The notes: generated from the sequence alone by a model not told the origin. A stretch of DNA of 64,000 nt from an uncultured Gammaproteobacteria bacterium (GCA_963843735.1 CAWJLN010000008.1:164818-228817), one strand, 5' to 3'; shown: positions 25,744-43,758, numbered from the stretch's first letter. Translations and numbers: made by a program.

Positions 25744-25799
25744 TTTTTCAGCAGCCTGTTAATGCTTCCAGCTACGGAATGACGGAATGAATCAGAGCC

Positions 25800-26885
25800 C
25801 TATGCGGGCAGGGTTATTTCCAGCCATTCCAGATCGTCGGAACAGTCTTTGAAACCCCGCTCCATGCCTTCCGGAATGACGAATGCGTCACCCGCCGCCA
25901 GATTTGTCTCCGGCCGTTCGCAAGTAAGCAGTGTCAGGCGGCCCTGCAATACGAACGTGAACGCGAAGGCTTTGTCCTGAATTGAGCGTTCGCCTGCGGG
26001 TCCGGGCTCCGCGCTGCGGCGGATGACCTGCCCCCCGGCAAGTCCTTTCGTTGCCGTCGCGATGCCGAGATCGCGCGTCTCGAACGCCGATCCATGTCGC
26101 TTTTCCCAGCGGGCTTTGCTCGCCTGGTGGAACACAAAGGTTTGACCGCCGTAATCGCGTTCCGGCAGATGGCGTCCGGTCGGTAGCCGCATGTCGTGAT
26201 CGAGATAGGTCATGTGTGCGGCCGGGCAGCCGATTTCGACGACTTCTAAACCATCCGAGGACTTCAGCACGCGATGGCGGATATGCGGCGGTTGCAGCAC
26301 GCAGTCGCCGGGGCGCATGACAAACGGTTCGCCCTGATCTTCGTACACCAGGCGCACCCAGCCGCGGTAGCAATAGATGAGTTGAAAGTGGATGTCGTGA
26401 TAATGCACGTTGTCGGCGACCGGCCCGCCTTCGGGAATGCGGATGTGAGAGGCGATTGCGTAGCCGCCGAGGCGATCCGAAATCAGATCGCGATACTGCA
26501 TGCCGGCGCGCCCCGATTTCCAGGCATCTTTCCGGTTGTCGAAGCGCTGAATGCTCAGACCGGCTTTCAGCTCGGGTATGACCATGGGTTCTACGCACGG
26601 TCCGAACTCGATGCGCGTGCCATTGGGCGCGGTCAAGGTTTCGCGCCGCATGCCGCTTTCGGTGCCCAGGCGCAGCGTTCCACCGTCGCCTCTATGCGCG
26701 GCGTCCAGGCGCAGGTTCAGGCCGTGGCCGCTCAACTGCGCGCGCAGCGGATTGTCGGCAGGGCTAATGCTGTCGAGGCGAAAGCCCAGTTCGTCAATGA
26801 AAAAGCGCACGGTTTCGGACAGATTGCCGGCCGGCAATACCGATTCGGCCAAAGCGATTTTGGGCGTGTCAGGATGAGTGGACAA
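25800..26885 (-). CDS. bicupin-domain protein of unknown function
   Basis: 361 aa; two cupin-like beta-barrel modules (HYHDIHFQLIYCYRGWVRLVYEDQGEPFVMRPGDCV and FAFTFVLQGRLTLLTCERPETNLAAGDAFVIP). Confidence 0.55.
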   Translation of the reverse strand: MSTHPDTPKIALAESVLPAGNLSETVRFFIDELGFRLDSISPADNPLRAQLSGHGLNLRLDAAHRGDGGTLRLGTESGMRRETLTAPNGTRIEFGPCVEPMVIPELKAGLSIQRFDNRKDAWKSGRAGMQYRDLISDRLGGYAIASHIRIPEGGPVADNVHYHDIHFQLIYCYRGWVRLVYEDQGEPFVMRPGDCVLQPPHIRHRVLKSSDGLEVVEIGCPAAHMTYLDHDMRLPTGRHLPERDYGGQTFVFHQASKARWEKRHGSAFETRDLGIATATKGLAGGQVIRRSAEPGPAGERSIQDKAFAFTFVLQGRLTLLTCERPETNLAAGDAFVIPEGMERGFKDCSDDLEWLEITLPA

Positions 26886-26905
26886 GCGAGGTTCTCCGTC
26901 CGGCT

Positions 26906-27322
26906 TCAGGCGGCAAAGAGACGGGAAAGGTCGCTGAAGCCCTTGAACTCCAGGGCGTTGCCGGAAGGATCGTAGAGAAAGAACGTGCCCTGTTCGCCGG
27001 GCTCACCCTTGAAACGCAGGTGCGGGGCGATGGCGAATTCGACGCCTTGCGCTTCGAGCCGTCCGGCAAGCGCTTTCCATTCCTTCAGCGTCAACACCAG
27101 TCCGAAGTGCGGGACGGGAACGGCATCGTGATCCACAAGATTTTTGTGCGGTGGTTGCGACCGTTGTTCGACGAGATGGCAGACGAGTTGGTGTCCGCCG
27201 AGATCGAAGTCCACCCAGCTTGCATCGCTGCGGCCTTCGTCGCAACCGAGCAACTCGCCGTAGAAGGCGCGCGCCGCGGCGAGATCGTGCACGGGAATCG
27301 CGAGATGAAAGCGCGGCGGCAT
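26906..27322 (-). CDS. VOC (glyoxalase/bleomycin-resistance/dioxygenase) family protein
   Basis: 138 aa; FHLAIPVHDLAAARAFYGELLGC N-terminal VOC module and HFGLVL...GTFFLYDPSGNALEF second half. Confidence 0.7.
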   Translation of the reverse strand: MPPRFHLAIPVHDLAAARAFYGELLGCDEGRSDASWVDFDLGGHQLVCHLVEQRSQPPHKNLVDHDAVPVPHFGLVLTLKEWKALAGRLEAQGVEFAIAPHLRFKGEPGEQGTFFLYDPSGNALEFKGFSDLSRLFAA

Positions 27323-27347
27323 AGGCGTTTTCTCCTTCAGGGTCGTA

Positions 27348-27812
27348 TCAACGTTTCTCGCGCAGCAGGCGGCCCTGCTCGCGCGCCCAATCGTGCTCCC
27401 GGGAGGCCTGGCGTTTGTCGTGCTGCTTGCGGCCCTTGGCGAGGCCGAGCTCGAGTTTGGCGCGCCCGCGCTTCCAGTACAGGCGCAGCGGCACGAGTGT
27501 ATAGCCGCGGCGTTCGACCGCGCCGGTGAGGTGGCGCAGCTCGCTTGCGTGCATCAGCAGCTTGCGGGTGCGGTCGGGCTCGGGCGTGATATGTGTGGAG
27601 GCGCTCGCGAGCGGCGTGACATGGGAGCCGATCAGCCAGGCCTCGCCCGCACGCAGTATGGCGTGCGCTTCGACGATGCTCGCGCGGCCCGCGCGCAGGG
27701 CCTTCACCTCCCAGCCTTCGAGCGCGAGACCCGCCTCGTAGCGTTCTTCGATAGAATAATCATGGCGCGCGCGGCGGTTTTCCGCGATTGCGGCGCTGGC
27801 GGATTTGTTCAT
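27348..27812 (-). CDS. smpB: SsrA-binding protein
   Basis: 154 aa; canonical SmpB ([32 protein letters not shown]...[24 protein letters not shown]). Confidence 0.9.
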
Positions 27813-27886
27813 GCGCCTATTGTATGCGCGAGTAGCGCGCCGGTATCGGCGCGACCCGCGCCACCATTCGAAGATCGGGGAGAAAT

Positions 27887-28324
27887 TTGCGCGAGATTCA
27901 CCGCTCGGCTCTGGTGCCTTACACGGCCGAGGATATGTTCGATCTGGTGAACGACGTCGAGTCGTATCCCCGGTTCCTGCCCTGGTGCCGCAATTCCTCG
28001 GTGCGCGAGCTCGGCGAGGACGAGCGGGAAGCGAGTCTGGAATTTTCGCGCGCGGGGCTGCACCGGCGCTTCACCACCTGCAATCGCCTGGAGCGCGGGC
28101 GCGCGATCAGGATGGATCTCGTCAACGGCCCGTTTCGCGTACTCGACGGGTGCTGGAGTTTTCACAATCTCGGCGAAGCGGGATCGAAGGTCGCGCTCGA
28201 TCTTCGCTTCGAGTTCGCCTCGCGTCTGCTCGAAGCGGTGTTCGCGCCGGTCTTCGCCGAAGTGATGAATTCTCTGGTGGACGCCTTCGTTGCGCGGGCG
28301 CGCGATCTGCATCATGTCGCCTGA
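27887..28324 (+). CDS. ratA: type II toxin-antitoxin-like ribosome-association toxin RatA (SRPBCC / polyketide-cyclase fold)
   Basis: 145 aa; conserved position next to smpB and rnfH; SRPBCC-type sequence ([25 protein letters not shown]). Confidence 0.75.
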
Positions 28325-28580
28325 GCGCGAGATTCATGTCGAACTTGCGGGCGCCGTGCCGTTTCTCGACGGTCCGGTGGGGATGCGGCTTGCGGCGGGC
28401 GCCTGCATGGCCGATGCGCTCGCCGTGCTCGGTGCGGGCGCGGACGATGCTTTTGAATTCGGGATTTGGGGCCGCAAGGCGTCGCCCGCGACGCCGCTGC
28501 GCAACGGAGACCGGATCGAGTTTTATCGCCCGCTTATCGCCGATCCGAAGACAGCGCGGCGCGCCCGCGCGAAACGCTGA
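28314..28580 (+). CDS. rnfH: RnfH family protein (ubiquitin-like fold)
   Basis: ATG 28314 overlapping the ratA stop; [17 protein letters not shown]...GDRIEFYRPLIADPK typical RnfH. Confidence 0.75.
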   Translation: MSPEREIHVELAGAVPFLDGPVGMRLAAGACMADALAVLGAGADDAFEFGIWGRKASPATPLRNGDRIEFYRPLIADPKTARRARAKR

Positions 28581-28595
28581 CGTCCGTTCGATCGT

Positions 28596-28976
28596 CTATG
28601 TTTTTGAAGCGCTTGCCGGAGACGGTGTTGCGGTCTTCCTGGCTTTCGTCTGGGCGCCGGGCGCCTGGGTAATCGGCTGGGAGGTTTCGAAGCTTGCCAC
28701 CTTGTCGTCCTTGAACTGCACCGTCAGCCGGTAGATGAAGGGTTTGGCGCGGGCGCCGCTCTTGTAGTAATAGACGTAATGCCAGGTGTCGGGATAGAAG
28801 GGATCGGCGAGCATCGGGCTGCCGAACAGAAAGCTCACCTGTTTGGTGGTCATTCCGACCCGCAATTTCGCGAGATCGTCGGCCTTCAGATAGTTGCCCT
28901 GAATAACGGGCGGCACATAGACGCAGCCCGCGAAGGCAAGCAGGGCGGCTCCGGCAAGAAGGAATCGGCAGCGCAT
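28596..28976 (-). CDS. bamE: outer membrane protein assembly factor BamE (SmpA/OmlA lipoprotein)
   Basis: 126 aa; lipobox LLAFAGC; BamE fold motif GNYLKADDLAKLRVGMTTKQVSFLFGSP; divergent from fur as in other proteobacteria. Confidence 0.8.
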   Translation of the reverse strand: MRCRFLLAGAALLAFAGCVYVPPVIQGNYLKADDLAKLRVGMTTKQVSFLFGSPMLADPFYPDTWHYVYYYKSGARAKPFIYRLTVQFKDDKVASFETSQPITQAPGAQTKARKTATPSPASASKT

Positions 28977-29040
28977 GGGGCATCAACTCTGGGCATCAAT
29001 GCGTCATAATAACCGGGAAACCCCCTTCAGCCCAAGCCCC

Positions 29041-29487
29041 ATGACGGAAGATCAGGACCTTCGCGATGCCGGGCTCAAGGTTACGGCACCGCGGCTGAAA
29101 ATTCTGCGGGTGCTGGAATCGAGCCCGCGGCGCCACATGGGCGCCGAGGACGTGTATCGCGCGCTGCTCGAAGCGGGCGAGGAACTCAACCTTGCGACCG
29201 TCTATCGCGTGCTCACCCAGTTCGAGACCGCGGGACTTGTTTCGCGCTTGCACTTCGAGGGGGGGCATTCGAGTTTCGAGCTGGATTCCGGCAAGCATCA
29301 CGACCACATCGTCTGCGTCGTTTGCGGGCGAGTGGACGAATTCGTGGACGAGGTCATTGAGGAGCGCCAGGCCGCCATCGCGAAAAGGCTCGGCTACGAA
29401 ATGACCGATCACGCGCTCTACATCTATGGCCTCTGCTCCAAGTGCCGCGCCGAGGGGCGTATCCCGAGCTCCCATGCCACGCCATAA
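29041..29487 (+). CDS. fur: ferric uptake regulator
   Basis: Start at ATG 29041 (MTEDQDLRDAGLKVTAPRLKIL); DNA-binding helix and HHDHxxCxxC metal site (GKHHDHIVCVVCGRVDEF). Confidence 0.9.
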   Translation: MTEDQDLRDAGLKVTAPRLKILRVLESSPRRHMGAEDVYRALLEAGEELNLATVYRVLTQFETAGLVSRLHFEGGHSSFELDSGKHHDHIVCVVCGRVDEFVDEVIEERQAAIAKRLGYEMTDHALYIYGLCSKCRAEGRIPSSHATP

Positions 29488-29531
29488 ATTTATTATATTA
29501 ACAATAACTTATTTGGCTAAATTAGTGTAAA

Positions 29532-31199
29532 TTATTCCGATTCAGCGCGGGCGATAAGCTCGCGCGCATGGCTGCGCGCGGATTCGCCGACGCGCACGCC
29601 GGCGAGCATGGCCGCGATCGCCTCCACGCGACGTTCGGCATCCAGCGCTTCCACCAGCGTCGTGCTCGCGCCGCTCTTGTTTGCCTTGCTGACGGCGTAA
29701 TGATGATCGGCAAGCGCCGCGACCTGTGGCAGATGCGTCACGCACAGTACCTGGCGCCGCGCGGCAAGCGCCTTGAGGCGCCGGCCGACGAGTTCGGCGA
29801 CGCGCCCACTGACGCCCGCGTCCACTTCGTCGAAGACCATAACCGGTACGCCCGCGGCGGCGCTTGCAAGCACCTCGACGGCGAGTGCAAGACGCGAGAG
29901 TTCGCCGCCGGAGGCGACCTGTGCGATGGGGCCGGGCGTTTGGCCGGCGTTGGTAGCGACCTGAAAAACGATGCGTTCGCGCCCGCCGGGCGGACAGGCA
30001 TCATCCTCCACCGGCGTAAGCGCCGCCTCGAAACGCGCTTGCGGCATGCCGAGTTCGCGCGCCGCCTTGGTAACCGCTGCGGCGAAGCGCGGTGCCGCCT
30101 CGGCACGTTTACGGCTCAAAACCGCCGCTGCGTCCCGATAGTCGTTCCTGACTGCCGCGAGCGCGCGTTCCAGCCGCGCAAGCCGGTCGCCGCCTTCGTC
30201 GAGATCGGCAATTTCCGTCTCGACGGTGGTTTGCCTGTCCGCAAGTTCGCCGGGCGAGCAGTCGTGCTTGCGTGCGAGCGCCTGATAGCGGGCGATGCGT
30301 TCGTTCAGCCATTCGAGGCGATTGGGATCCGCCTCGGCCTCGCGGCGGCGATGCAGTTCGCGCACCGCTTCGTCGGCAAACGCTTCGGCCTGGGCGAGCA
30401 GGCCGGTCGTCTCGGCGAGCCCGGCGCCCGCAGGCAGGCGCGCGAGCGCTTCGCGCGCGGTAGCCAATGCGGCGAGAGCCGGAGCCTCGCCTTCGTCCAG
30501 CGCCGCGAGCGCGGCTGCCAACGCTTCTTCGCTGCGTTCGTGGTGGCGCAGGCTGTCGTATTCGCCGTTCAATTCGTCGTACTCGTCTTCGCGCGGCGCA
30601 AGTTCGCCCAGTTCGCGTTGCTGGAAGCGCAGGAATTCCAGCCGCGCGTCGCGCCCGGCGACGGCCTTGCGCGCATCGGCGAGCGCGGCTTCCGCCTCGC
30701 GCACCGCATCGGCAGCAATCGTCACCTGCGCCGCAAGTGTTTCCGCTTGCGCGAAGGCATCCAGCAATTCGCGCTGATACGCAGGGCGGGCGAGGGCGTG
30801 ATGCTCGTGCTGGCCGTGGATTTCGACCAGCGGTTCGCCGAGTTCGCGCAATGCCGCAAGCGGCATCGGTACGCCGTTCACCCAGGCCCGGCTGCGCCCG
30901 TCGCTGCCCATCTGCCGGTGCAGCATCAGATGGTCTTCCAGCGGCAGATCGCGTGCGGCAAGTGCGTCGCGCAGCGCATTGTTTTCGGGCAGGGAAAATT
31001 CTGCACTGACGCTTGCGCGTTCGGCGCCGCCGCGCACCAGCGACGCCGCGCCACGATCGCCGAGCACGAGTCCCAGCGCATCTACCAGCAGAGATTTCCC
31101 TGCGCCGGTCTCGCCGGTGAGCACGGTGAATCCCGCGCCGGGCTCCATCTCCGCTTCGCTGATGACGGCGAGATCGCGTACCGCGAGGCGGGTCAGCAT
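29532..31199 (-). CDS. recN: DNA repair protein RecN
   Basis: 555 aa; Walker A GETGAGKS, long coiled-coil region, C-terminal ABC signature and Walker B (VMVFDEVDAGVSG). Confidence 0.9.
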   Translation of the reverse strand: MLTRLAVRDLAVISEAEMEPGAGFTVLTGETGAGKSLLVDALGLVLGDRGAASLVRGGAERASVSAEFSLPENNALRDALAARDLPLEDHLMLHRQMGSDGRSRAWVNGVPMPLAALRELGEPLVEIHGQHEHHALARPAYQRELLDAFAQAETLAAQVTIAADAVREAEAALADARKAVAGRDARLEFLRFQQRELGELAPREDEYDELNGEYDSLRHHERSEEALAAALAALDEGEAPALAALATAREALARLPAGAGLAETTGLLAQAEAFADEAVRELHRRREAEADPNRLEWLNERIARYQALARKHDCSPGELADRQTTVETEIADLDEGGDRLARLERALAAVRNDYRDAAAVLSRKRAEAAPRFAAAVTKAARELGMPQARFEAALTPVEDDACPPGGRERIVFQVATNAGQTPGPIAQVASGGELSRLALAVEVLASAAAGVPVMVFDEVDAGVSGRVAELVGRRLKALAARRQVLCVTHLPQVAALADHHYAVSKANKSGASTTLVEALDAERRVEAIAAMLAGVRVGESARSHARELIARAESE

Positions 31200-32080
31200 T
31201 CGGGTGCGCGTCCGCCCCAGCCGAGTTTTTCGCGCAAGGTGGCGAAGTATTCATAACCCTGCGGGTGGACCAGACTCAGTTCGTGTTCTGCGCGGGTTAC
31301 GCGCAGTTCGTCGCCGGGCGCGAGCGCAAGCGTGAGCTGCCCGTCGAGTACGGCTTCGGCGCTTTCTCCCGCCTCAAGCAGCGGACGCAGGCGAATCGGC
31401 TGATCTGCAGGCACTACGGCGGGACGTTCGCCGAGACTGTGCGGGCAGATGGGAACGATCGCGAAGGTATCGAGGCTGGGGGCGAGGATCGGTCCGCCCG
31501 CCGACAGCGCATAGGCGGTCGAACCGGTGGGCGTGGCGACGATCAGCCCGTCGCCGCGGGTGCGGCTGAAATAGGCATCGCCGACCCAGGCTTCCACTTC
31601 AAGCAGACGGGAACCGTCGCGGCGCTTGACGACCACGTCGTTCACGGCATGATGGACTTGCGGATTCGTGCCGTCGGTTGCGACGCGGAGCATGGTGCGC
31701 TGTTCCAGCGTGTAGCGTCCGTCGAGCACAGCGCCGAGTTCTTCGGCCAGCGCACCGGAGCGCACGTCGGCGAGAAAACCGATGCGACCGAGGTTGATGC
31801 CGATCAGAGGCACCGATGCCCAGCCGAGCGCGCGCGCCGCGGCGAGCAGCGACCCGTCGCCGCCGACGACGATAGCGCATTCGGCCCACTGCGCAATCCT
31901 TTCCGGCTCGGCTTCGGCAGCGTGGGGCTGGAGTGTCGTGGCATGGCCGGTGGCGAGAATCTCGCAGTCGGCCTCGCGCAATATGCCGAGCACCGCGTCC
32001 ATGACCGCGCCGGTCGCCGGGTCGGCCACCTTGGCGAACAAACCGATGCGCCGGAAAGGCTTTTGCGTCATATTCGGCAC
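31193..32080 (-). CDS. nadK: NAD(+) kinase
   Basis: 295 aa; GGDGS motif (IVVGGDGSLL), NDVVV and TPTGSTAYALSAGGPI blocks. Confidence 0.9.
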   Translation of the reverse strand: MPNMTQKPFRRIGLFAKVADPATGAVMDAVLGILREADCEILATGHATTLQPHAAEAEPERIAQWAECAIVVGGDGSLLAAARALGWASVPLIGINLGRIGFLADVRSGALAEELGAVLDGRYTLEQRTMLRVATDGTNPQVHHAVNDVVVKRRDGSRLLEVEAWVGDAYFSRTRGDGLIVATPTGSTAYALSAGGPILAPSLDTFAIVPICPHSLGERPAVVPADQPIRLRPLLEAGESAEAVLDGQLTLALAPGDELRVTRAEHELSLVHPQGYEYFATLREKLGWGGRAPEC

Positions 32081-32115
32081 CGTAGCACGGTCCGCGTTAA
32101 ATGAAAAAGTGTAGC

Positions 32116-32826
32116 CTACCGGGAAGCGTCGTGCCGGCGTTGGAACTGGCGGGCGCCGAAAAGGTTTTCGAAGCCGGAGGCGCTTTCGGTGGCCGCGGCG
32201 CGCTCTTTGGCGAGCACCTCCAGTCCGCGCTTCACGGCCGGGCGTTCGGCGATCACGGCAACCCAGCGCTTGATACGCGGGTATTCTTCGATATCAACGG
32301 CACGGTTGTGATGCGAACGCAGCCAGGGGAAGATCGCGATGTCGGCGATCGTGTATTCGTCGCCGGCGACGTACTCGTTGCGTGCGAGTTGTTCGTCGAG
32401 CACACCGTACAGGCGGTTGGCCTCCCGCGTGTAGCGCTCGATGGCGTAGCTGATGCGTTCGGGCGCAGAGCCGCGAAAATGATGCACCTGTCCGAGCATC
32501 GGCCCGATGTGGCCCATCTGGAACATCAGCCATTGCAGCACGGCGTAATGTTTGTGCGGTTCGGCAGGGAAGAATCGCTTGACCTTTTCGGCAAGGTAGA
32601 TGAGGATGGCGCCGGATTCGGCGAGCGCCAGGGGCTTGCCGCCGGGGCCGTCCTCGTCCACGATGGCCGGTATCTTGTTGTTCGGGCTGATGGCGAGAAA
32701 TTCGGGCGCGAACTGGTCGCCCGCGCCGATGTTCACGGGATGTGCCTCGTATGCGAGCCCCGTTTCTTCGAGCATGATATGCACCTTGTGCCCGTTCGGG
32801 GTGGTCCAGGAATAAACTTGGATCAT
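32116..32826 (-). CDS. glutathione S-transferase family protein (YfcG/Nu-like)
   Basis: 236 aa; thioredoxin-fold N-terminus (IQVYSWTTPNGHKVHIMLEE) and alpha-helical C-domain. Confidence 0.8.
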   Translation of the reverse strand: MIQVYSWTTPNGHKVHIMLEETGLAYEAHPVNIGAGDQFAPEFLAISPNNKIPAIVDEDGPGGKPLALAESGAILIYLAEKVKRFFPAEPHKHYAVLQWLMFQMGHIGPMLGQVHHFRGSAPERISYAIERYTREANRLYGVLDEQLARNEYVAGDEYTIADIAIFPWLRSHHNRAVDIEEYPRIKRWVAVIAERPAVKRGLEVLAKERAAATESASGFENLFGARQFQRRHDASR

Positions 32827-32888: not shown

Positions 32889-33595
32889 ATGACGACCATG
32901 CAATTTGCACAGCAGGGCTTGCAGGACAGGTCGGACGGCCCGCTGGGCGATTTGCGCTGCCGCGGTTTGCGCAGCACGGCGCTTGCGCGTCTGCCGGAAC
33001 CGTCGCGCGCGCTGGCGGCGCTCCTGCCCGAAGGCGCGGCGCTGCTCGAATCGCGCACGGCGCACCCCGGCGCAGGCTATTCCTTTGTCGCCTTTTCTCC
33101 GCTCGCGGAATTGCGCCTGCAAGCCGAAGGCTTGTTGCTGAGCAGACCGGGGCGCGCGACGGAAACGCTTGCGGGACCGCCACTGGCGCGGCTCTTCGCC
33201 TGTCTGGAAGTGGTGCGGACGATGCCGGGCGCGCCCGAAGTGCCTTTCGCTGGTGGCTGGGTCGGTTACGTTGCGCATGAGCTGGGCTGCCGGATGATGG
33301 ACACGGCGCCCGCCGCCGCAGCGCCGCCCGCGCGGCCGCCGGGGCCGCTGGCCGTGTTCCGTCTTTACCGCGACGCGCTGGTGGTGGATCATCGCGCGGG
33401 CACGGCAACCCAGTATGCGAGCGATTGGGGCGAAGGCGCGGATGCGGTCATGGCGCGCCTGCATCATGCGCGCGAACGACTCGGGGCCGACGCGCCGGAA
33501 ATGGCAACGGCGCCGAGCGTCGTAGATAAGCCGGTCGCGACGCTCGATGCCGGAGAGTTCGCCGAACGGCAGGCGGCACTGCAAAAGCTGATCCG
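32889..33595 (+). pseudogene. N-terminal fragment of a chorismate-utilising enzyme (aminodeoxychorismate/anthranilate synthase component I-like); recognisable similarity ends at about 33,595
   Basis: LPEGAALLESRTAHPGAGYSFVAFSPLAELRLQAEG matches the N-terminal region of PabB/TrpE-family enzymes; no chorismate-binding catalytic domain follows. The frame runs on into reverse-strand IS110 sequence (ORF ends 33671). Confidence 0.55.
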
Positions 33596-34500
33596 CGCCA
33601 GTTCCCGCAATCGCTTGCAGCGTTTCGGCGTTGGGAAACCGGTTGCGGTCGTCGCCAATCCACGCCAGTAGGCGCGCTGGTGTAAGTGGACCGCGTGAGC
33701 CGGGAAAACCCTTCCACCAGGCAGTCTCCGGGTGGGTCATAAACACGGCGGGGAGTTCGCGTTCAAGGCGGCTGCGGGTGTGGTGTAGTTCGCGCAGCAG
33801 CGGAATGAGGATTTGTACCTGAACGATATAACCTGAACTCACGGCAGCGCTGGGCATAGGGGCCTGCAATTGCGCATAAATCAGGTCAAGGCGATCCATG
33901 AAACGGTAATTGTTGCGCTTCAAGAACAACTTCAATTGGTGCTTTGTCAGCGTCCGCGCTTGTTCCGGGGTCGGATGGGCTTCCAAGAATGCGAGGCAGA
34001 TGAGAACTCTCCACATGAGCAAATAACCAATTCGCAGCCGGGAAGTACTGGTAGAGCAAGTAATTCAAGCGATTACCGAGCCGACGTTGGTCAACAATCG
34101 TTTTGTCCAATGCCCGTGCCAGTTCGCGCAGATGAAGGACGAGCGGACTGGAGCGCGTGAGCGGTCGGCAGTCTGGGTCTTTGAGGCGCAGCAGGTGTGC
34201 CAGCAAATACGCATCTGACGGGTCCGATTTGGAGTGGCGAGGCCGTCGGTGCGCGACCACCACGGATGGGGTGATATAGAGCGCCCACCCTTGCGCCAGC
34301 ATCCAATCGACCAGTAACCCGTCGGAGCGCTCAATGTTGAACAGAATATTGGCAGCACCGTAGTGGTTGACGAGACTCTCGAAGCGCTGAAAACCGTGGT
34401 TGGACTGCTTAATTTCCAACTGCTGGACAATGGTACCGTCGTCGTCGAGCAGACACAGGTCATGCTTTTCTGTTGCCCAGTCAATACCAAGATAGTACAT
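33596..34500 (-). mobile_element. IS110-family (DEDD) transposase/recombinase gene, truncated at its 3' end and frameshifted (N-terminal ORF 33886..34500, C-terminal part in the frame of ORF 32823..34022)
   Basis: N-terminus MYYLGIDWATEKHDLCLLDDDG (RuvC-like DEDD domain); C-terminal-domain motifs ...LLAWIGDDRNRFPNAETLQAIAGTG stop abruptly at about 33,596 where pabB-like sequence begins. Confidence 0.7.
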
Positions 34501-34519
34501 GGGAAGCTCTCCTTGCTCC

Positions 34520-34900
34520 TACAGCCAAGAATTGCTGCCACATCGCTACGCACATATGCAGGCTACGGCGCTCATGGCGCAACAAGTTTACGATACGCAT
34601 AGAGATGCCCCACATCAGCGAACAGTCGCCCATAGTTCTCGTGGAACGGCAAGCTAAGGGTTCTGCGGATGTGAGTGGCAGACAAGACAAGTATGCCTGT
34701 TGTCTCCTCTGTCCGGCACACGTAGTGAGCGGGCGCATTGCAGCCGACCTTGCAGTCGGCTGCCCGTCCGCACTGCGGACGGCGGCTAGGCTTGGGTCGC
34801 AGGGGTGACGGTGGCCGCTGTCACCAGTCTACACCCCGACCCAGCTTGGAATGAGCCTCGCTCATGACCCAAGCCTAGCCAGCGAGCTAAAACCTTGCCA
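34520..34900 (-). ncRNA. candidate structured non-coding region immediately 5' of the IS110 recombinase (bridge-RNA-like candidate)
   Basis: Cluster of perfect hairpins: gcagccgac/gtcggctgc (34740-34763), ccgtccgc/gcggacgg (34764-34782), ggtgac/gtcacc (34804-34825), and a 15-bp inverted repeat ggctaggcttgggtc (34784-34798) / gacccaagcctagcc (34866-34880); no convincing ORF. Confidence 0.35.
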
Positions 34901-35651
34901 CCTCACGCGCCGGTGGAGGCTTACAATCGCGTCCACGTGGCGCACCTGCGCCGCGATCCGGGGTGATGGCTGGGCGGTGGGCAGGAATGGTCCCGGCGAC
35001 ATGACGCACCTACTTTTCTTACCTTCTGTAAAATTTTCTCCTTTGCATAGCTGATTTTGGCTGCAAAACGATTCTCTGCTGACTCTCTTTGGGCGAATCA
35101 GTACACCTACGTCTTGTCTCATCCGAGGCACAATCTGGACGCAAATCCGGCCAGGTTTTCGATGACGCGGGGCAAATGACAGCGGGTGCTCCTTGAGAGA
35201 TGAAAGGCGGCCAGAAAACGGTTTTCTGGAAATTTTAGTGCGAGTCTTTGCGCCCGTAATTGGCGCCTCTCGTCTGGCGGCTTCTCCCAAGTCTGCCGCA
35301 CTTTCGCTCACCCTCGTACTAAAATGGATTTTTACCGCCAGTTTTTACGCTTTTTTGACGGTTCTTTTTCGCATAATGACCGCATTTTTACGGGTGTGTG
35401 GATTACACTTCTCGCGTAAGGGATGAAGCGAGCAAGGTTTGTAGACATTTGAGTATCGGTCATGCTAAAAGCGAAGATACTCGTCGTTGACGATGAGCCA
35501 GCCATTCGCAAACTGCTTCAGTACAGGCTGATGGGTTCCCTTAATTGCGCTGCTGGGCAAACTTCGTTTCATCTTGAACGAATCCGGTATCGGCAGACCA
35601 ATAGCCAATACCGGATTTGCCAAGCCGAATAAGTGAGGACGGGACAACAAT

Positions 35652-36128
35652 ATGGCTGGCGAACCGGTCATTATGGTACAGATCGCGGATCATGACTGGA
35701 CTCTGAATGCCGTTCATGCTGCTTGCCAGAAAGCCCGCCAGCGTCACTGGATGGTCGCTCTGGTCAGCCTGATTCCGGTGCAGCACACCGCCTGGCTGGG
35801 AACCGACTGGGGTTACATGAACATAAGTCCTCAAGCTGCGCGTGAGCTTGAGGACTATCAGGCGACAGTGCTGGATTATGGCTTGAACTGCGAGATCGTG
35901 CGCTACCAATATACGGACTTCACCGATGCGCTGGCGGATGCGGCAGATCATCTGAATGCCCGGATCGTCTTCGCCCATTTCCCGCATACGCTGATTCCGG
36001 GGTGGCGGCATTTCCTGCTTTGGCTGCTCAACCGGCGTTTGGCGGAACACCAGCGACAGTTGATTCAGCCACCCGTTCGCGTGCTCCACTCTGCGCCGAC
36101 GCTGGCACCCGAAATCGATCCTCTCTAA
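35652..36128 (+). CDS. hypothetical protein, weakly universal-stress-protein-like
   Basis: 158 aa; alternating hydrophobic beta-strand/helix pattern; the overlapping minus-strand ORF 35541..36089 is an alternative; low confidence. Confidence 0.3.
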   Translation: MAGEPVIMVQIADHDWTLNAVHAACQKARQRHWMVALVSLIPVQHTAWLGTDWGYMNISPQAARELEDYQATVLDYGLNCEIVRYQYTDFTDALADAADHLNARIVFAHFPHTLIPGWRHFLLWLLNRRLAEHQRQLIQPPVRVLHSAPTLAPEIDPL

Positions 36129-36232
36129 AGCGTCATCTTGACGGATTTTTGACGACTTACTCCGCCATTCTTGCAGATTTTTGACGCCTGCCTCTGCTAC
36201 AACTATCAGATCATAGGAAACGGAGACATTCG

Positions 36233-36322
36233 ATGGATGGGCTGTTCATGGGTCTGGCTGTGCTCTTTTTTGCCCTCTGCTGGGGCTTGATCGAACTGGC
36301 CGACCGGATTTCAGGAAGTTGA
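36233..36322 (+). CDS. 29-aa hydrophobic small ORF immediately upstream of kdpF (not in ORF track; below length cutoff)
   Basis: ATG 36233 with GGAAACGGAG RBS; MDGLFMGLAVLFFALCWGLIELADRISGS*; stop 36320-36322, one nt before the kdpF ATG. Confidence 0.35.
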   Translation: MDGLFMGLAVLFFALCWGLIELADRISGS

Positions 36323-36323
36323 G

Positions 36324-36416
36324 ATGAACTGGTTGTACCTCATCGCGGGTCTGGTGGCGCTGCTGCTGCTGATCTATCTGGTGGTCGCGCTGCTGAAACC
36401 GGAGTTGTTCTCATGA
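36324..36416 (+). CDS. kdpF: potassium-transporting ATPase subunit F
   Basis: MNWLYLIAGLVALLLLIYLVVALLKPELFS (single TM, KdpF-like length and C-terminal ALLKPE.F); stop overlaps kdpA ATG. Confidence 0.7.
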   Translation: MNWLYLIAGLVALLLLIYLVVALLKPELFS

Positions 36417-38166
36417 TTCCGATCCCTAACGGAATATTGCAGATCGCTTGCTACCTTGCCGTGCTGTTTCCTGCTGGTGAAGCCGCTTGGCGCGTATATG
36501 GCGAACGTCTACGCCGGGCGGTCGATAGTCAACCGGGTGTTTGCCCCGGTCGAGCGTTGGCTGTATCGTCTACTCGGCACGCGCGCCGATCTGGAGATGA
36601 ACTGGAAAACCTACGCGCTGGCGCTGCTGGTCTTCAACGCTTTGGGGCTGCTGGCGGTTTATGCCTTGCAGCGATTGCAAGGGTCGCTGCCGCTCAACCC
36701 GCTGCATCTCGGCGCGGTGTCGCCTGATTCAGCTTTCAACACGGCGGTCAGCTTTGCCAGCAACACCAACTGGCAGGGCTACGGCGGCGAAACCACCCTG
36801 AGTTACCTGACGCAGATGGCCGGACTGACGGTGCAGAACTTCGTGTCGGCGGCGACAGGAATGGCGATTTTGATCGCGCTGATTCGCGGTTTGGCGCGCC
36901 GCACGATGCAGACGATCGGCAATTTCTGGGTCGATCTGACGCGGACGATCCTCTACATCCTGCTGCCACTGGCGATCATCGGCGCGGTGTTCCTGGTGTC
37001 GCAAGGGGTGGTGCAGACTTTCGCCAGTTCCCAAACGGCGCAGTTGGTCGAGCCGGTGCGCGCTGCCAACGGCAGTACCGCCACCGAGCAGCAGATCGCG
37101 GTTGGCCCGGTGGCCTCGCAGGTCATGATCAAGCAGTTGGGCACCAACGGCGGTGGCTTCTTCAACACCAACTCGGCGCACCCTTTCGAGAACCCAACGC
37201 CGCTGTCGAATTTTGTCGAGCTGCTGGCGATCCTGCTGATCCCGGCGGCGCTGTGCTATACCTTCGGCCAAATGATCGGTGACACACGGCAGGGCTGGGC
37301 GCTGCTGGCGGCCATGACGCTGGTGTTCGTCGTGCTGCTGGGCGTGACCTATGCGGCGGAGCAAAGCGGCAATTCGCGCTTCCCGGCGACAGTCGATCAA
37401 AGCGCCAGCGCTGCCCAGTCGGGCGGCAACATGGAAGGCAAGGAAACCCGCTTCGGCATCGCCAATTCGGCGCTGTGGGCAACGGCGACGACCGCCGCGT
37501 CCAACGGTTCGGTCAATTCGATGCATGACTCGTATACGCCGCTCGGCGGCCTCGCCCCGCTGTGGCTGATCCAGCTGGGCGAGGTGATTTACGGCGGTGT
37601 CGGCTCCGGCCTGTACGGGCTGCTGATGTTCGCCATCGTGGCGGTGTTCGTCGCCGGGCTGATGGTCGGGCGCACGCCGGAATATCTGGGCAAGAAGATC
37701 GAAGCCTACGAGATGAAAATGGCGTCGATTGCCATCCTGGTGCCGCCGGTGCTGGTGCTGCTGGGGACGGCGGTCGCGGTGGTCGCGCAGCCGGGACGTT
37801 GCCTCAATCCTGAATACGCAGCCCGCCGCGCACGGCTTCAGCGAAGTGCTGTACGCCTTCTCGTCGGCGGGCAATAACAACGGCAGCGCCTTCGCCGGGC
37901 TGAACGCCAATACGCCGTTCTACAACATCGCGTTAGGGATCGCCATGCTGTTCGCCCGCTACTGGGTGGCGCTGCCGGTGCTGGCAATCGCCGGGTCGCT
38001 AGCACAGAAGAAGATCATCCCGGCCAGCGCAGGCACGCTGCCGACCCATACGCCGCTGTTCGTCATCATGCTGATCGGAATTGTGGTGGTCGTCGGCGCG
38101 CTGACGTTCTTCCCGGCGCTGGCGCTGGGGCCGATTGTCGAACATCTCATGATGGTGAGTCGCTGA
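36413..38166 (+). pseudogene. kdpA: potassium-transporting ATPase subunit A, two frameshifts (about 36,465-36,475 and about 37,795-37,805)
   Basis: N-terminus [18 protein letters not shown] in the frame of ORF 36413; the body ([13 protein letters not shown]...EMNWKTY...[27 protein letters not shown]...) in the frame of ORF 36456..37877; the C-terminal 120 aa ([34 protein letters not shown]...) in the frame of ORF 37729..38166. Confidence 0.85.
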
Positions 38167-38238
38167 CCCATATTTGGGCACGATATATCGTGCCCCTAGG
38201 GAACGCACACATCGTGTGTAGCAAGCGAAGAGGAAATC

Positions 38239-40323
38239 ATGTCCCTTGAAACTCGTGCCAGCGCGCGACCGCTGTTCGATCCCGAAATCATCGGGCGGGC
38301 GGCGGTCGATGCCCTGCGCAAACTCGATCCGCGCAACCAACTGCGCAACCCCGTGATGTTCATCGTCGAGGTGGGTGCGGCCTTCACCACGCTGCTGTTC
38401 CTGCAAGCCGTACTGACTCCCTACGGCGAATTTCCGCCGCAGCGCGCGGGCTTCATTCTGGCGATTGCCGTCTGGCTGTGGTTCACGGTGATTTTTGCCA
38501 ACTTTGCCGAGGCGATGGCCGAGGGGCGCGGCAAAGCCCAGGCCGACGCGCTGCGCAAAGCTCGGCGCGACGTAACCGCCAGGAAGCTCAGCAGCCCGTC
38601 GCGCGACGGACAGGTCATGTCGGTTTCGGCGACCACGCTGCGCAAAGATGATCTGGTGCTGGTCGAAGCGGGCGACACCATCCCCGGCGATGGCGAAGTG
38701 ATCGAGGGCGTAGCCTCGGTCGATGAGAGCGCCATTACTGGCGAAAGCGCCCCGGTGATCCGCGAGAGCGGCGGCGACCGCAGTTCGGTCACGGGCGGCA
38801 CGCGTGTATTGTCGGACTGGCTGGTGGTGCGCGTCAGCAGCAATCCCGGCGAGGCGTTCCTCGACCGCATGATCGGCATGGTCGAAGGGGCGAAGCGCCA
38901 GAAGACGCCCAACGAGATCGCGCTCAATATTCTGCTGGCGGCGCTGACCATCGTTTTTCTGCTGGCGACAGTGACGCTGCTGCCCTATTCGATTTATGCC
39001 GTGACTGCGACCGGGCAGGGCAGTGTCATCACCGTGACGGTGCTGGTGGCGCTGCTGGTCTGCCTGATCCCGACCACCATCGGCGGCTTGCTCTCGGCGA
39101 TTGGCATCGCCGGGATGGATCGCATGATCCAGGCCAACGTGATCGCGGTGTCCGGGCGCGCGGTCGAGGCGGCGGGCGATGTGGACGTGCTGCTGCTCGA
39201 CAAAACCGGGACGATCACGCTCGGCAACCGGCAGGCGACCGACTTCCTCCCTGCGCCCGGTGTACCCATCGAGCAGTTGGCCGACGCCGCGCAAATTTCC
39301 TCGCTGGCCGACGAGACACCGGAAGGCCGCAGCATCGTCGTGCTGGCGAAGGAGAAATACAACCTGCGCGGGCGCAGCCTGGAAGATGCCACGTTCATCC
39401 CCTTCACCGCGCAGACCCGCATGAGCGGCATCAATCTGGATGGGCGCTGCATCCGCAAAGGCGCGGCGGACGCGGTGAAAGCCTATGTCGAAGACCTGGG
39501 CGGGCAGTTCCCATCAGCGGTGCAGACCTGCGTCGAGGACATCGCCCGCAAAGGTGCGACGCCGCTGGTGGTGGCCGAGAATCGGCGCGTGCTGGGCGTG
39601 ATCCAACTGAAGGATATTGTCAAAGGCGGCATCAAGGAGCGCTTTGCCGAACTGCGCCAGATGGGCATCAAGACCATCATGATCACGGGCGACAATCCGC
39701 TGACCGCTGCCGCCATCGCCGCCGAAGCCGGGGTCGATGACTTTCTGGCGCAGGCCACGCCCGAAGCCAAGCTCAAACTGATCCGCGAGCATCAGGCGGG
39801 CGGGCGGCTGGTCGCCATGACGGGCGATGGGACGAACGATGCTCCGGCACTGGCGCAGGCCGACGTGGCCGTTGCCATGAACACCGGCACGCAGGCCGCC
39901 AAAGAAGCGGGCAACATGGTCGATCTCGACTCCAACCCGACCAAGCTGATCGAGATCGTCGAGATCGGCAAGCAGTTGCTCATGACGCGTGGCTCGCTGA
40001 CCACCTTCAGCATCGCCAACGACGTGTCGAAGTATTTCGCCATCATCCCGGCCGCTTTCGCGGGAACGTATCCCCAGTTGGGCGCGCTTAATATCATGGG
40101 CTTGGCGACGCCGACCAGCGCGATTATGTCGGCAGTGATCTTCAACGCGCTGATCATCATTTTCCTGATCCCGCTGGCGCTGCGCGGTGTGCCCTACCAC
40201 CCAATGAAAGCCTCAACGCTGCTGCGCAACAATTTGCTGATCTACGGCCTGGGCGGGCTGATCACGCCATTCATCGGCATCAAGTTGATCGATCTGATTC
40301 TGGTCGCTCTGCATTTAACCTGA
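38239..40323 (+). CDS. kdpB: potassium-transporting ATPase subunit B (P-type ATPase)
   Basis: 694 aa intact; DKTGT phosphorylation motif ([13 protein letters not shown]), TGDN and [19 protein letters not shown] motifs. Confidence 0.95.
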
Positions 40324-40381
40324 GTCATGACCGTAGAAGCGATTTGCCAGGTCGCCCCTACAAAACAGAAAGCAACATATC

Positions 40382-41033
40382 ATGAATACCCGCATGAACA
40401 TCGATTGGCAGCAGGTCGTCCGCCCGGCGGCGGTCGCCCTGATCATCTTCACCCTCTTGACCGGGCTGCTGTATCCCGCGCTGATTACCGGGATCGCGCA
40501 GAAGGTGTTTCCGCATCAAGCCAACGGCAGCCTGATCACCGACGCCACCGGCAAGGTCGATCGGTTCGGAACTAATCGGCCAACAGTTCACTAACCCGGC
40601 TTATTTCTGGGGACGGCTGTCGGTGACTGCGCCCGTGCCCTATAATGCAGCGGCTTCGGCGGGATCGAACCTTGGCCCGCTCAATCCGGCGCTAATTGGC
40701 GCAAACGGCACAATTCAGCAGCGGATCGACACGCTGAAAGCGGCGGATCAGGCGGCGGGCGTGACCAATCCGCTGCCGATCCCGGTCGATCTGGTGACAG
40801 CTTCGGCCAGCGGGCTTGATTCGCAGATCAGTCCAGCGGCGGCGCACTATCAGGTGGCGCGGGTGGCGGCTTTGCGCGGCGTGAGCCAAGCAACCATTCA
40901 GGCGTTGGTAGACGAATTCACCGAAGGGCGCTGGTTAGGGCTGCTGGGCGAGCCGCGCGTCAATGTGCTGGAACTGAATCTGGCACTCGATCAGCGCTAC
41001 CCCCTGGCAGCAAAGTCGGCGGATAATCAATAG
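40382..41033 (+). pseudogene. kdpC: potassium-transporting ATPase subunit C, frameshift near 40,557-40,565
   Basis: N-terminal TM and [14 protein letters not shown] in the frame of ORF 40382..40594; the rest ([28 protein letters not shown]...[20 protein letters not shown]...VLELNLALD) in the frame of ORF 40623..41033. Confidence 0.8.
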
Positions 41034-41064
41034 TAGGAGTTGATAGTTATCAACCCCTGAAGGA

Positions 41065-43758
41065 TTGATCCATCCAATGGGCGATAAGCGTCCCAATCCC
41101 GACGAACTGCTGGTGCGGTTGCAGCAGGAAGACCTGCGCCGCCAGCGCGGTCGGCTCAAAATTTTTCTAGGCGCGGCGGCGGGCGTCGGCAAAACCTACA
41201 GTATGCTTCAGGCGGCACACGATAAGCTGGCCGAAGGCGTTGAGGTGGTGGTCGGCTACGTTGAACCGCACAGCCGACCGGAAACTGCCGCTCTACTGGA
41301 AGGGCTGGAGGCGATTCCGCCGCTGCTGGTGGAGTATCGCGGCACGCGGCTGAGCGAGTTCGATCTCGACGCTGCGCTCAAGCGGCACCCAGCGCTGATC
41401 CTGGTCGATGAACTGGCACATACCAATGCCGAGGGGATGCGCCACGCCAAGCGCTGGCAGGATGTGCTGGAACTGATCGAGGCGGGCATCAACGTCTACA
41501 CAACGGTCAACGTGCAGCACCTCGAAAGCCTGAACGATGTGGTTGCCCAGATCACCGGGACGATTGTCCGCGAGACGCTGCCCGATGCCGTGCTGGAACA
41601 GGCCGACGAGATCGAGCTGATCGATCTGTCGCCTGACGACCTGCTGCTGCGACTGCGCGATGGCAAAATCTACGCGCCGCAGCAGGCGGAGCAGGCCATG
41701 CGCAGCTTCTTTCGGCGCGGCAACTTGATGGCGCTGCGCGAACTGGCGCTGCGCCGTACCGCCGAACGAGTCGACAGTGATATGCAGAGCTACCGGCAGG
41801 ATAAGGCGGTCGAACCCGTATGGCCTGCCGGAGAACGGATTCTGGTCTGCATCAGTCCGAGTCCCATGTCAGCGCGGATCGTGCGCGCGGCCAAACGGAT
41901 GGCCGCTGGGCTGCACGCTGAATGGATCACGGTGTACGTGGAAAAGCCGCGAGCGGCACCGCTGTCGGACAGCGCCCGCAGTCGCATGATTCAGACGCTG
42001 CAACTGGCCGAGCAGCTTGGCTCGGAGACCGTCACCCTGAGCGGACACGATGTGGCTGAAGAAATCCTGACCTTCGCTCGGCAGCGCAACGTCACCAAAA
42101 TCATCGTCGGCAAACCGATCCACCCCACCTGGCGCGATACGGTTTTCGGCTCGGTGCTCAACCGGCTGGTGCGGCTCAGTGGGGACATTGACGTGTACGT
42201 CATCAGCGGCGAAGGCGAGACGACCCGCCCGCAGACTTATCCGCGTTGGCGGCGACCGCGCCAACCGGTGCGCTACGTGTGGACGCTGCTGATCGTCGCG
42301 GCCTGCACGGTGCTGGCGGCGCTGATGTTCCCGTATTTTGCCCCGGCCAACGTGGTCATGGTTTTTCTGGTGGGGATCGTGATCGTCGCCACTCGCTTCG
42401 GACGCAGCCCAGCGATTCTGGCGTCGATCATCAGCGTGATCGCCTTCGACCTGTTCTTCGTGCCGCCGCAGCTTACTTTCGGCGTCAGCGATACCCAGTA
42501 TCTGGTCACCTTCGCCGTGCTGCTGCTGGTGGGGCTGACCATCAGCAGCCTAACGGTGCGTATCAAGGAGCAGGCCGAAACCGCCCGCGAGCGCGAACGG
42601 CGCACCGCCAGTCTGTACGGGATGAGCCGGGAGTTTGCCAGCGCTAACACGATTGATGCTCTGGCGCAGACCGCCATTCAGCATCTTGAAGACGCTTTTC
42701 ACAGCCGGGTGGCACTGCTGCTGAATGAGGCCGACGGTCAGCTTAAAACTCATGGCTCGGACAGTATTCAGGATAATCTGACCGCCCATGAACAGAATGT
42801 CGCCCGCTGGGTCTACGATCATGGACAGGTGGCCGGACGCGGCACCCAAACGCTGCCGGGATCGCAAGGACTGTATCTGCCGCTCAACACTTCCCAGGGG
42901 CGGATGGGCGTCCTGGGCATTTATCCGAGCGTGCCCGATCAGTTGTTGTCGCCCGATCAGATGCATCTGCTGGAAGCCTATGCTAACCAAACAGCAGTCG
43001 CCATCGGGCGGGTGAAGTTCAGTCAGGAGACCGAGCACGCCAGGATACAGGTCGAAACCGAACAGCTTCGCAGTTCGCTGTTGAGTTCGGTGTCGCACGA
43101 TTTGCGCACGCCGCTGGCGGCCATCACGGGCGCGGCCAGCGGCCTGATAGAGAGCGCCGCGAACCTCGATCCGGCGCAGCGCGAACTAGCGCAAATCGCC
43201 TATGAGGAAGCCGAACGCCTGAACCGCCTGTTAGGCAATCTGCTGGAAATGACCCGGCTGGAGTCGGGCGGCGTCCGTGTCGATAAAGAATGGCAGCCGC
43301 TTGAGGAGGTTATCGGATCAACACTGGCGCGGATGGATACGGCTTTCGACGACCATCCGCTGTCCACGCATCTACCCGACGATCTGCCGCTGGTGCCGAT
43401 TGACGGCATCCTGATCGAACTGGTGTTGGTCAATCTACTGGAAAATGCCGTAAAATATACCCCGGTCAGTGTACCGATTGATATATCGGCCTTTGCCGAA
43501 CCGAACGAGGTCGTGGTCGAGGTGGCAGATCGCGGCGCGGGCATCTCGCCAGGAGAAGAGCAGCGCATCTTTGAGAAATTCTATCGCAGCCGCCCGGCCA
43601 CCACCGGAGGTGTCGGGCTGGGATTGACCATTTGCCAAGCGATTGTCGAGGCGCACGGCGGGCGAATTTGGGTCAGTAATCGCCCGGGCGGGGGTGCCGT
43701 TTTCCACTTTACCTTACCATTGGAGGGGCAGCCGCCTCAAGTGAGTACCGACGCATGA
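41065..43758 (+). CDS. kdpD: sensor histidine kinase KdpD
   Basis: 897 aa intact; N-terminal KdpD P-loop domain (GAAAGVGKT), Usp-like domain, 4 TM, GAF-like region, HisKA (SVSHDLRTPLAAI) and HATPase (GVGLGLTICQAIVEAHGG). Confidence 0.9.
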   Translation: MIHPMGDKRPNPDELLVRLQQEDLRRQRGRLKIFLGAAAGVGKTYSMLQAAHDKLAEGVEVVVGYVEPHSRPETAALLEGLEAIPPLLVEYRGTRLSEFDLDAALKRHPALILVDELAHTNAEGMRHAKRWQDVLELIEAGINVYTTVNVQHLESLNDVVAQITGTIVRETLPDAVLEQADEIELIDLSPDDLLLRLRDGKIYAPQQAEQAMRSFFRRGNLMALRELALRRTAERVDSDMQSYRQDKAVEPVWPAGERILVCISPSPMSARIVRAAKRMAAGLHAEWITVYVEKPRAAPLSDSARSRMIQTLQLAEQLGSETVTLSGHDVAEEILTFARQRNVTKIIVGKPIHPTWRDTVFGSVLNRLVRLSGDIDVYVISGEGETTRPQTYPRWRRPRQPVRYVWTLLIVAACTVLAALMFPYFAPANVVMVFLVGIVIVATRFGRSPAILASIISVIAFDLFFVPPQLTFGVSDTQYLVTFAVLLLVGLTISSLTVRIKEQAETARERERRTASLYGMSREFASANTIDALAQTAIQHLEDAFHSRVALLLNEADGQLKTHGSDSIQDNLTAHEQNVARWVYDHGQVAGRGTQTLPGSQGLYLPLNTSQGRMGVLGIYPSVPDQLLSPDQMHLLEAYANQTAVAIGRVKFSQETEHARIQVETEQLRSSLLSSVSHDLRTPLAAITGAASGLIESAANLDPAQRELAQIAYEEAERLNRLLGNLLEMTRLESGGVRVDKEWQPLEEVIGSTLARMDTAFDDHPLSTHLPDDLPLVPIDGILIELVLVNLLENAVKYTPVSVPIDISAFAEPNEVVVEVADRGAGISPGEEQRIFEKFYRSRPATTGGVGLGLTICQAIVEAHGGRIWVSNRPGGGAVFHFTLPLEGQPPQVSTDA

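Follow-up and report, generated by a model that had tools for sequence, protein, structure and literature searches.

The window, by which we mean the whole 64,000-nt stretch of DNA analysed here, is made up of two parts that meet inside two truncated genes (Table 1). The left part is core chromosome of a gammaproteobacterium and ends in the N-terminal portion of a TrpE/PabB-family gene. The right part, assigned to a Chloroflexota-like genome, begins with an IS110-family transposase pseudogene on the opposite strand, followed by the 5′ non-coding end of the element, a short spacer, a kdp locus and a region of mobile and defence genes. An earlier note made from this DNA had placed a breakpoint at about 33,595, with both genes truncated there. 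This is confirmed, and alignment to a related IS copy refines the position to 33599-33601.

Table 1. Features on both sides of the junction, with the basis of each assignment.
Feature	Coordinates	Strand	Basis or remark
Left flank, gammaproteobacterial core chromosome	1..32826	.	Pfam, nucleotide collinearity, SecF cluster
Truncated TrpE/PabB-family (chorismate-utilising) gene, 237 codons	32889..33599	+	Pfam Anth_synt_I_N, NCBIfam
Junction	33599..33601	.	L001 alignment
IS110-family transposase pseudogene	33600..34500	-	Pfam PF01548, NCBIfam, comparison with L001 and P0044
5′ non-coding end of the IS	34501..34946	-	Conserved in 5 copies from ~34899 downward
Low-GC spacer, from IS left end to kdp-lineage block	34947..35341	.	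No Pfam match for its ORF
OmpR-type response-regulator gene remnant	35342..35630	+	Comparison with relatives
158-aa lineage-specific ORF, small ORF, kdpFABCDE	35652..44474	+	Pfam, tblastn against L089 proteins
kdpF	36324-36413	+	
kdpA	36456-38166	+	+1 nt at 37797
kdpB	38239-40323	+	
kdpC	40382-41033	+	+1 nt at 40559
kdpD	41065-43758	+	
kdpE	43755-44474	+	
Rest of right flank	44866..64000	.	Pfam, homologue clusters, L092
TM0106 RecB-like nuclease	44866-46311		Pfam

Only the N-terminal ~46% of the TrpE/PabB-family gene, the regulatory domain, is left. The reading frame continues across the junction into a 260-aa ORF (32889..33671), of which Anth_synt_I_N (PF04715) is the sole Pfam match (residues 38-171, E = 3.7e-13); the C-terminal chorismate-binding catalytic domain is absent from this ORF by Pfam. 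The ORF is sensible up to ...LQKLIRA (33599), after which we would presumably expect a Gly-Asp motif in these families, and then runs through 24 codons of antisense IS sequence to a stop. The remainder of the gene is not present elsewhere in the window, and a search of all six frames of the whole window revealed no chorismate-binding catalytic motifs. The gene had been described as pabB-like. Its truncation stands, with the N-terminal domain only, but the choice of pabB over trpE does not: on this short fragment the NCBIfam TrpE models scored 33 and 32 bits (positions 17-208 of 455) and the PabB models 24 and 19 bits (positions 31-152 of 453), far below cut-offs of more than 500 bits. The fragment can be assigned to the TrpE/PabB family, and on what remains pabB and trpE are indistinguishable. 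In a search of 5.8 billion proteins the fragment matched nothing but the ORF of the window itself, the candidates probably being swamped by Ala/Pro-rich words, and a metagenome scan gave one weak match at 35%.

The transposase approaches the junction from the other side. Its DEDD_Tnp_IS110 domain (PF01548) is complete on the ORF 33886..34500 (residues 4-154, matching all 155 positions of the profile, E = 5e-25), and the NCBIfam model transpos_IS110 (NF033542, 'IS110 family RNA-guided transposase') matches in two stretches, positions 1-150 and 136-258 of 343. A single extra base at ~34006 causes a +1 frameshift, beyond which the protein runs on to ...FPNAETLQAIAGT and breaks off at ...LQAIAGT. 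The gene lacks its last 100 codons, among them the APVTRRSGKS stretch of an intact relative, and no match to the C-terminal Transposase_20 domain (PF02371), with its serine-containing motif, was detected on 33600-34022. The relative P0044 (94-96% identity) has PF02371 and continues ...AIAGT-APVTRRSGKS... at this point. An IS copy on L001 (ERZ25039533 contig_42971) is 96% identical at the nucleotide level and aligns from window position 34946 down to 33601 (L001 position 8377); past the breakpoint its transposase ORF continues for a further 304 nt, followed by downstream sequence. The claim that the transposase is cut at the same breakpoint as the chorismate-enzyme gene is borne out; homology to L001 starts exactly at 33601.

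The right end of the IS is absent from the window, so that the two ends of the element are not both present. The left boundary lies between ~34899 and 34946. The 5′ non-coding region is strongly structured, with 144 predicted pairs, 4 of them showing compensatory changes among the five copies. It matches no Rfam family at threshold, and could possibly correspond to the bridge-RNA region. The element resembles the IS110 bridge recombinases such as IS621 in its N-terminal DEDD/RuvC-like domain and in its long, conserved, structured upstream non-coding region. It differs in that the SG-containing Transposase_20 stretch is gone, the non-coding RNA falls outside Rfam and the copy is dead, having a frameshift and lacking both the C-terminal domain and the right end. 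Copies that are 87-96% identical occur widely in metagenomes. As its intact left end is joined to right-flank DNA, we assign the IS to the right flank.

Alignment to L001 sets the breakpoint at 33599/33600 or 33600/33601: the last base of the pabB side is 33599 and the first IS-homologous base is 33601. The A at 33600 is a lone base that fits neither parent unambiguously. L001 reads ...gcgggaac followed by cgctcccg, and the minus strand of the window reads ...gcgggaac followed by tggcgcgg. The junction bears no recombination signature. We found no microhomology or repeats there beyond chance 7-10-mers, no sequence common to the pabB side and the missing part of the IS, and no adapter remnants when the junction was compared with adapter sequences. 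No tRNA or Rfam family was found in the 64-kb window, no integrase among the right-flank ORFs scanned, and neither flanking or att-like repeats nor a second IS copy in the window. The 260-aa read-through ORF is 100% identical on a 238,176-nt NCBI/ENA contig, on which proteins of both flanks are also found. The junction is therefore in the deposited contig and was not produced by cutting out the window. Exact look-ups of the GST, 158-aa ORF, P0045 and KdpB proteins of the window in an index of gene positions gave no match. The junction did not turn up independently elsewhere: a 24-mer across it had no exact match in JGI metagenomes, an uninformative result.

The left flank carries xseA, putA (1061 aa, with DNA-binding domain), sdaA, queA-tgt-yajC-secD-secF, suhB adjoining trmJ and a cysteine desulfurase gene, TDO and POT genes, the tyrosine catabolism genes hppD-hgmA-fahA-maiA, smpB, ratA-rnfH, bamE, fur and recN-nadK; at its end a GST gene is followed by the truncated TrpE/PabB-family gene. 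The orders queA-tgt-yajC-secDF and smpB/ratA-rnfH/bamE/recN-nadK are those that we take to be found in E. coli, and bamE is an outer-membrane biogenesis gene. Positions 9965-20445 are collinear, at 86-88% nucleotide identity, with JBOIAX010000038.1 of MAG GCA_050739215.1, named 'Gammaproteobacteria bacterium'. Three proteins from Gammaproteobacteria MAGs share a cluster with SecF at the ≥90% level. A search of genome contigs with NadK yielded no confirmed relative. Gene content, gene order and collinearity assign the left 33.6 kb to the Gammaproteobacteria.

On the right flank, the block that starts at 35342 with the response regulator and continues with the ~160-aa ORF and kdp is common to five relatives, L008, L091, L095 (ERZ25039495), L089 and L090. 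The last two come from the NCBI MAGs GCA_034432495.1 and GCA_016124285.1, both named Chloroflexota. The order in 5/5 relatives is amino-acid permease, OmpR-type response regulator, ~160-aa ORF, small ORF, kdpF, A, B, C, D and E. The permease has no match in the window. What remains of the response regulator is the upstream intergenic sequence, ~25 codons at the start of the gene (35462-35536) and ~75 nt at its end; ~555-590 nt in between are deleted. These two lesions look real, and the decay could include the truncation of the IS. The kdp block is 77-80% identical at the nucleotide level to L008 and L095. The KdpB protein is 91-92% identical to that of the relatives and 91% to MBI1258502.1 from a 'Chloroflexota bacterium'. 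KdpB alone is uninformative for the taxon, because the matches listed in a search of genome contigs were spread over many phyla at 70-79% identity; they did not include the >90% cluster.

Downstream of kdp, the ten best homologue clusters of the TM0106 nuclease contain only Anaerolineae and Chloroflexota as named taxa. It is followed by genes for a trypsin-STAND/TPR protein and Trypco1, a mobile-element remnant (HNH and an O/DnaD-like initiator), MerR, a DUF1156 methylase fragment, a PIN protein, a split HmaA helicase, Uma2 and a methyltransferase-glycosyltransferase. Of the accessory genes listed earlier for this side, kdp and defence genes (split HmaA and trypsin-STAND) are confirmed, as is a PIN protein, but the supposed prophage is a replication-initiator/HNH mobile-element remnant and not a phage. 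Positions 61183-64000 are 95% identical at the nucleotide level to L092, a contig of ERZ25039495, the sample with three of the kdp relatives. A 142-nt element (35042-35183) in the spacer next to the IS matches intergenic sequence of the same contig at 76% identity. L092 came up through a search with the glycosyltransferase, whose close matches bore no taxon names. The right flank carries no universal marker gene within the window. It can be called Chloroflexota-like on the basis of MAG names given by the depositors and of two gene systems, the kdp block and the TM0106 nuclease.

The earlier note had proposed comparing tetranucleotide composition and taxonomic assignment on the two sides of the breakpoint, and both comparisons were made. 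The second gives Gammaproteobacteria on the left and Chloroflexota-like on the right. For the first, symmetrised tetranucleotide deviations were correlated between 10-kb pieces, and the measure was calibrated on 42 loci that span many phyla. Comparing the 10-kb pieces at either end of a locus, a same-genome pair, gave r = 0.893 +/- 0.034 (5% quantile 0.823, minimum 0.785), and GC-matched pairs from different genomes a median r of 0.767. Within the window, left-left pairs reached 0.90-0.93 and right-right pairs 0.85-0.88. The nine left-right pairs gave 0.69-0.84, 6/9 lying below the same-genome minimum, near the median of the GC-matched different-genome pairs, and 7/9 below the 5% quantile. The pair adjacent to the junction (L3-R1, 0.83) is in the lowest 5-10% of same-genome pairs and not outside their range. 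When homologous parts were masked, the nearest neighbour of the right flank was the rest of L092 (0.897). Chloroflexota-type loci are among the top eight neighbours of the right flank and absent from the top eight of the left flank, whose nearest neighbours by tetranucleotides are a mixture of Beta/Gammaproteobacteria and Acidobacteria and are not taxon-specific. The GC figures given previously need revision: upstream GC, put at 65-70%, is 0.57-0.69 (mean ~0.64), and GC beyond 50 kb, put at 45-57%, is 0.48-0.61. The 'progressive' fall downstream is mostly an internal feature of the right flank, which has a GC of 0.60-0.63 as far as 49.7 kb and of 0.53-0.54 farther on, in the mobile/defence region, and not a property of the junction. 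Tetranucleotide and taxonomic discordance are also expected from a recent foreign island.

Eight 1-nt indels were identified in the 64 kb, on both flanks. Two are on the left (hgmA, ~23378; fahA, ~24240-24290) and six on the right (IS110 transposase, 34006; kdpA, 37797; kdpC, 40559; HmaA, ~59200; and a compensating pair in the trypsin-STAND gene, ~47770 and ~47615), a split that is not significant (binomial p ~0.11). The relatives are on 'contig_N' assemblies and are frameshifted themselves, and many of the GTDB matches listed in the KdpB search are MFD bins. PMC12313526 describes a Nanopore-only metaFlye assembly with one round of Medaka. The indel pattern fits a lightly polished long-read assembly of this type, and from the relatives we infer an origin of the window in such a Nanopore assembly.

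The breakpoint is real in the sequence, and we consider it probable, at roughly 70%, that it is an assembly or library chimera and not a biological rearrangement. Gammaproteobacterial DNA would have been broken at a random point inside the trpE/pabB-family gene, and Chloroflexota-like DNA at a random point inside one IS110 copy. The two ends would have been joined when an error-prone long-read metagenome was made into a library or assembled. Each gene would be intact in its own genome, and the double truncation and the 260-aa 'fusion' ORF would be by-products. Breaks inside both genes with no boundary mark point to a homology-free join in vitro or in silico, or else to illegitimate recombination in vivo; two genes cut internally with no shared sequence, IS end, tRNA or, among the ORFs scanned, integrase are what random fragment ends give. 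A chimera is favoured because the phylum-level discordance extends for at least 30 kb to either side, because the right-hand block keeps the conserved chromosomal synteny of its own lineage, because losing half of a core biosynthetic gene would be costly, and because the assembly is evidently error-prone. The cost would presumably be that of losing the catalytic half of such a gene in a free-living gammaproteobacterium.

As to the route, a join so clean and free of adapter sequence leads us to favour a chimeric molecule or read formed by physical ligation. In-silico Nanopore chimeras usually retain adapter sequence, and its absence here counts against the chimera reading. The lone A at 33600 would be compatible with ligation of dA-tailed fragments, on a speculative view. 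A synonymous variant of the IS would account for it just as well, so that little weight attaches to it. Classical misjoins occur at repeats common to two genomes, whereas the cuts here are in a unique gene and inside an IS that have no sequence in common, so that a chimeric molecule or read is indicated and not the collapse of a repeat. The earlier suggestion of a chimera joined at a repeated IS copy is supported as to the chimera, by the phyla of the flanks, their composition and the long-read error profile. It fails as to the repeated copy, since a repeat misjoin would leave the IS whole and the pabB side has nothing in common with the missing part of the IS. The case resembles the inter-genome chimeric contigs of the GUNC type in its blocks of discordant phylum and oligonucleotide composition and in its single switch with no recombination signature. 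GUNC, a detector of chimerism in MAGs, is cited in PMC12313526.

The main alternative is a genuine junction, in which a gammaproteobacterium would have acquired at least 30 kb of DNA from Chloroflexota and would then have lost the 3′ part of trpE/pabB, the right end of the IS and the intervening DNA, either by illegitimate recombination or in a subsequent deletion. We regard this as unlikely. Its best argument is the decay of the right flank, which is full of mobile and defence genes and of decayed ones (response regulator, DUF1156, HmaA), like an ageing island; genomic islands likewise place a foreign segment with IS, defence and toxin genes beside core genes. The junction stands in the deposited contig, the join is clean and adapter-free, and the L3-R1 correlation of 0.83 is inside the same-genome range. 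However, the boundary shows none of the marks of a genomic island, namely tRNA, integrase (among the right-flank ORFs scanned), direct or att-like repeats or an IS terminus. The donor phylum would be very distant, and the transfer of at least 30 kb would have to include a chromosomal-type kdp locus in lineage-specific synteny. Moreover, a core biosynthetic gene would have been inactivated, there is no return to gammaproteobacterial DNA within 30 kb, the 1-nt indels on both flanks speak for an error-prone assembly, and the search of JGI metagenomes with the 24-mer gave no independent occurrence of the junction. The organism implied, a soil gammaproteobacterium that recently acquired at least 30 kb of Chloroflexota DNA (kdp, IS110, defence) by a homology-free join inside a trpE/pabB-family gene, is accordingly one in whose existence we place little confidence.

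A hybrid of the two readings is improbable. It would make the pabB′/IS110′ junction real in the gammaproteobacterium, the assembler having switched to a Chloroflexota-like genome inside the shared IS (33601-34946). Repeat-mediated misjoins are the classical assembler error, and with IS copies at 87-96% identity so widespread in metagenomes, two genomes of one sample could share the element. Nevertheless, two independent events would be needed, a real truncation and a misjoin, and a long-read assembler would have had to be misled by a repeat of 1.3 kb. Identity along the alignment with L001 gives no sign of a switch, and the presence of the IS in Gammaproteobacteria is not supported. Least probable, and practically ruled out, is an IS-mediated rearrangement or deletion within one genome, which the earlier note had offered as one of its two explanations in view of the IS110-family element at the breakpoint, and which we rejected in each of its forms (transposition into pabB, IS-adjacent deletion, recombination between two IS copies): transposition, IS110-type site-specific recombination and IS-adjacent deletion create junctions at IS termini, but the break falls within the transposase ORF, 304 nt short of the stop codon and at least 304 nt from the right end of the IS, the 96% identical copy L001 excluding a true terminus at 33600; an exchange between copies would have left the IS whole, and no second copy is in the window; an element with neither C-terminal domain nor right end cannot act; and the flanks differ in phylum-level affinity.

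If the junction is a chimera, the 238-kb NCBI/ENA contig would mix two phyla and contaminate a MAG, and a spurious 260-aa 'fusion' protein would have entered the protein databases. It would also invite false inference of cross-phylum transfer, of pabB loss and of IS-mediated rearrangement. A misjoin of this type, clean, repeat-free and inside genes, is missed by repeat-based checks. If the junction is real, it would represent a very large and recent transfer from Chloroflexota to Gammaproteobacteria, from a monoderm-type to a diderm organism, with decay already under way. The feature is important as a flag for contamination or misassembly of a public contig, and as biology it is most likely not real.

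Approximately 400 nt of non-coding DNA upstream of the IS110 transposase gene is conserved among copies that are 87-96% identical, including the 96%-identical copy on contig L001 and those on contigs L002-L005. The predicted fold of this region is a series of long hairpins, e.g. GGCTAGGCTTGGGTC...GACCCAAGCCTAGCC, and comparison across copies revealed 4 compensatory pairs within it. No Rfam family matched the region, which is a candidate bridge-RNA region.

Coordinates of the features described (window positions unless a contig is named).
Feature	Position	Strand	Further copies
IS110 5′ non-coding region	34501-34946	-	L001 7035-7479; 5′ regions of L002-L005
Three-gene cluster: Trypco1, trypsin-like protease, TM0106 nuclease	44866-49714	-	
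Mobile-element remnant: HNH endonuclease, lambda-O/DnaD-like replication initiator	51006-54853		
Degraded Hma-type defence locus	55600-60094	-	

An OmpR-type response-regulator gene precedes kdp in the five related contigs that share the kdp block. At 35342-35630 of the window only a remnant of this gene is present: ~25 codons from its start and ~75 nt from its end remain, with ~555-590 nt deleted internally. The permease gene located upstream of the response regulator in the relatives yielded no match in the window. Compared to Chloroflexota-type relatives, kdpA (37797) and kdpC (40559) each carry one inserted base and are thereby split; kdpB, kdpD and kdpE are intact.

The three-gene cluster further downstream looks like a defence module. 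The trypsin-like protease (1020 aa) contains STAND/TPR regions, and the TM0106 RecB/Cas4-like nuclease is fused to an RNase H-like domain. A compensating pair of frameshifts is located at ~47770/47615 in the protease gene, where the alternative frame gives a sensible reading. In the Hma-type locus, a break at ~59200 divides the HmaA SNF2 helicase (PADLOC PDLC00659 scores of 1083 and 458 bits) and a 101-aa fragment is all that is left of the DUF1156 methylase, with a PIN-domain gene lying between the two. Within the mobile-element remnant, the coding sequence of the initiator gene (52244-53470) contains inverted repeats at 52947-53038, an arrangement reminiscent of an origin located inside the initiator gene. 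Three 67-nt repeats with a common GAGCGCTCACTGGAC core follow at 54555-54853, spaced by 116 nt.

Indels are not limited to the right flank, since on the gammaproteobacterial side (22766-25103) one frameshift splits the homogentisate dioxygenase gene hgmA and another splits the fumarylacetoacetase gene fahA. Between hppD and hgmA, a 36-nt inverted repeat (22325-22360/22723-22758; 89% complementary, GGGAGAGGG-rich) encloses 362 nt and resembles either a MITE or an element of the REP type. On contig L094 of the related gammaproteobacterial MAG, the genes for cysteine desulfurase and tryptophan dioxygenase have a separate NifU_N (IscU-like) gene (8601-9029) between them. At the equivalent position of the window (18154-18624), the tryptophan dioxygenase ORF carries a 117-residue N-terminal extension, which may be a further frame error or a fusion.

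Finally, a 142-nt non-coding element (35042-35183) recurs with 76% identity at 8618-8759 of L092, a contig of sample ERZ25039495. The window copy lies next to the IS left end and the L092 copy is intergenic. The same contig matches the window's far right end at 95%. Together, these two matches connect the two ends of the right flank with a single lineage.
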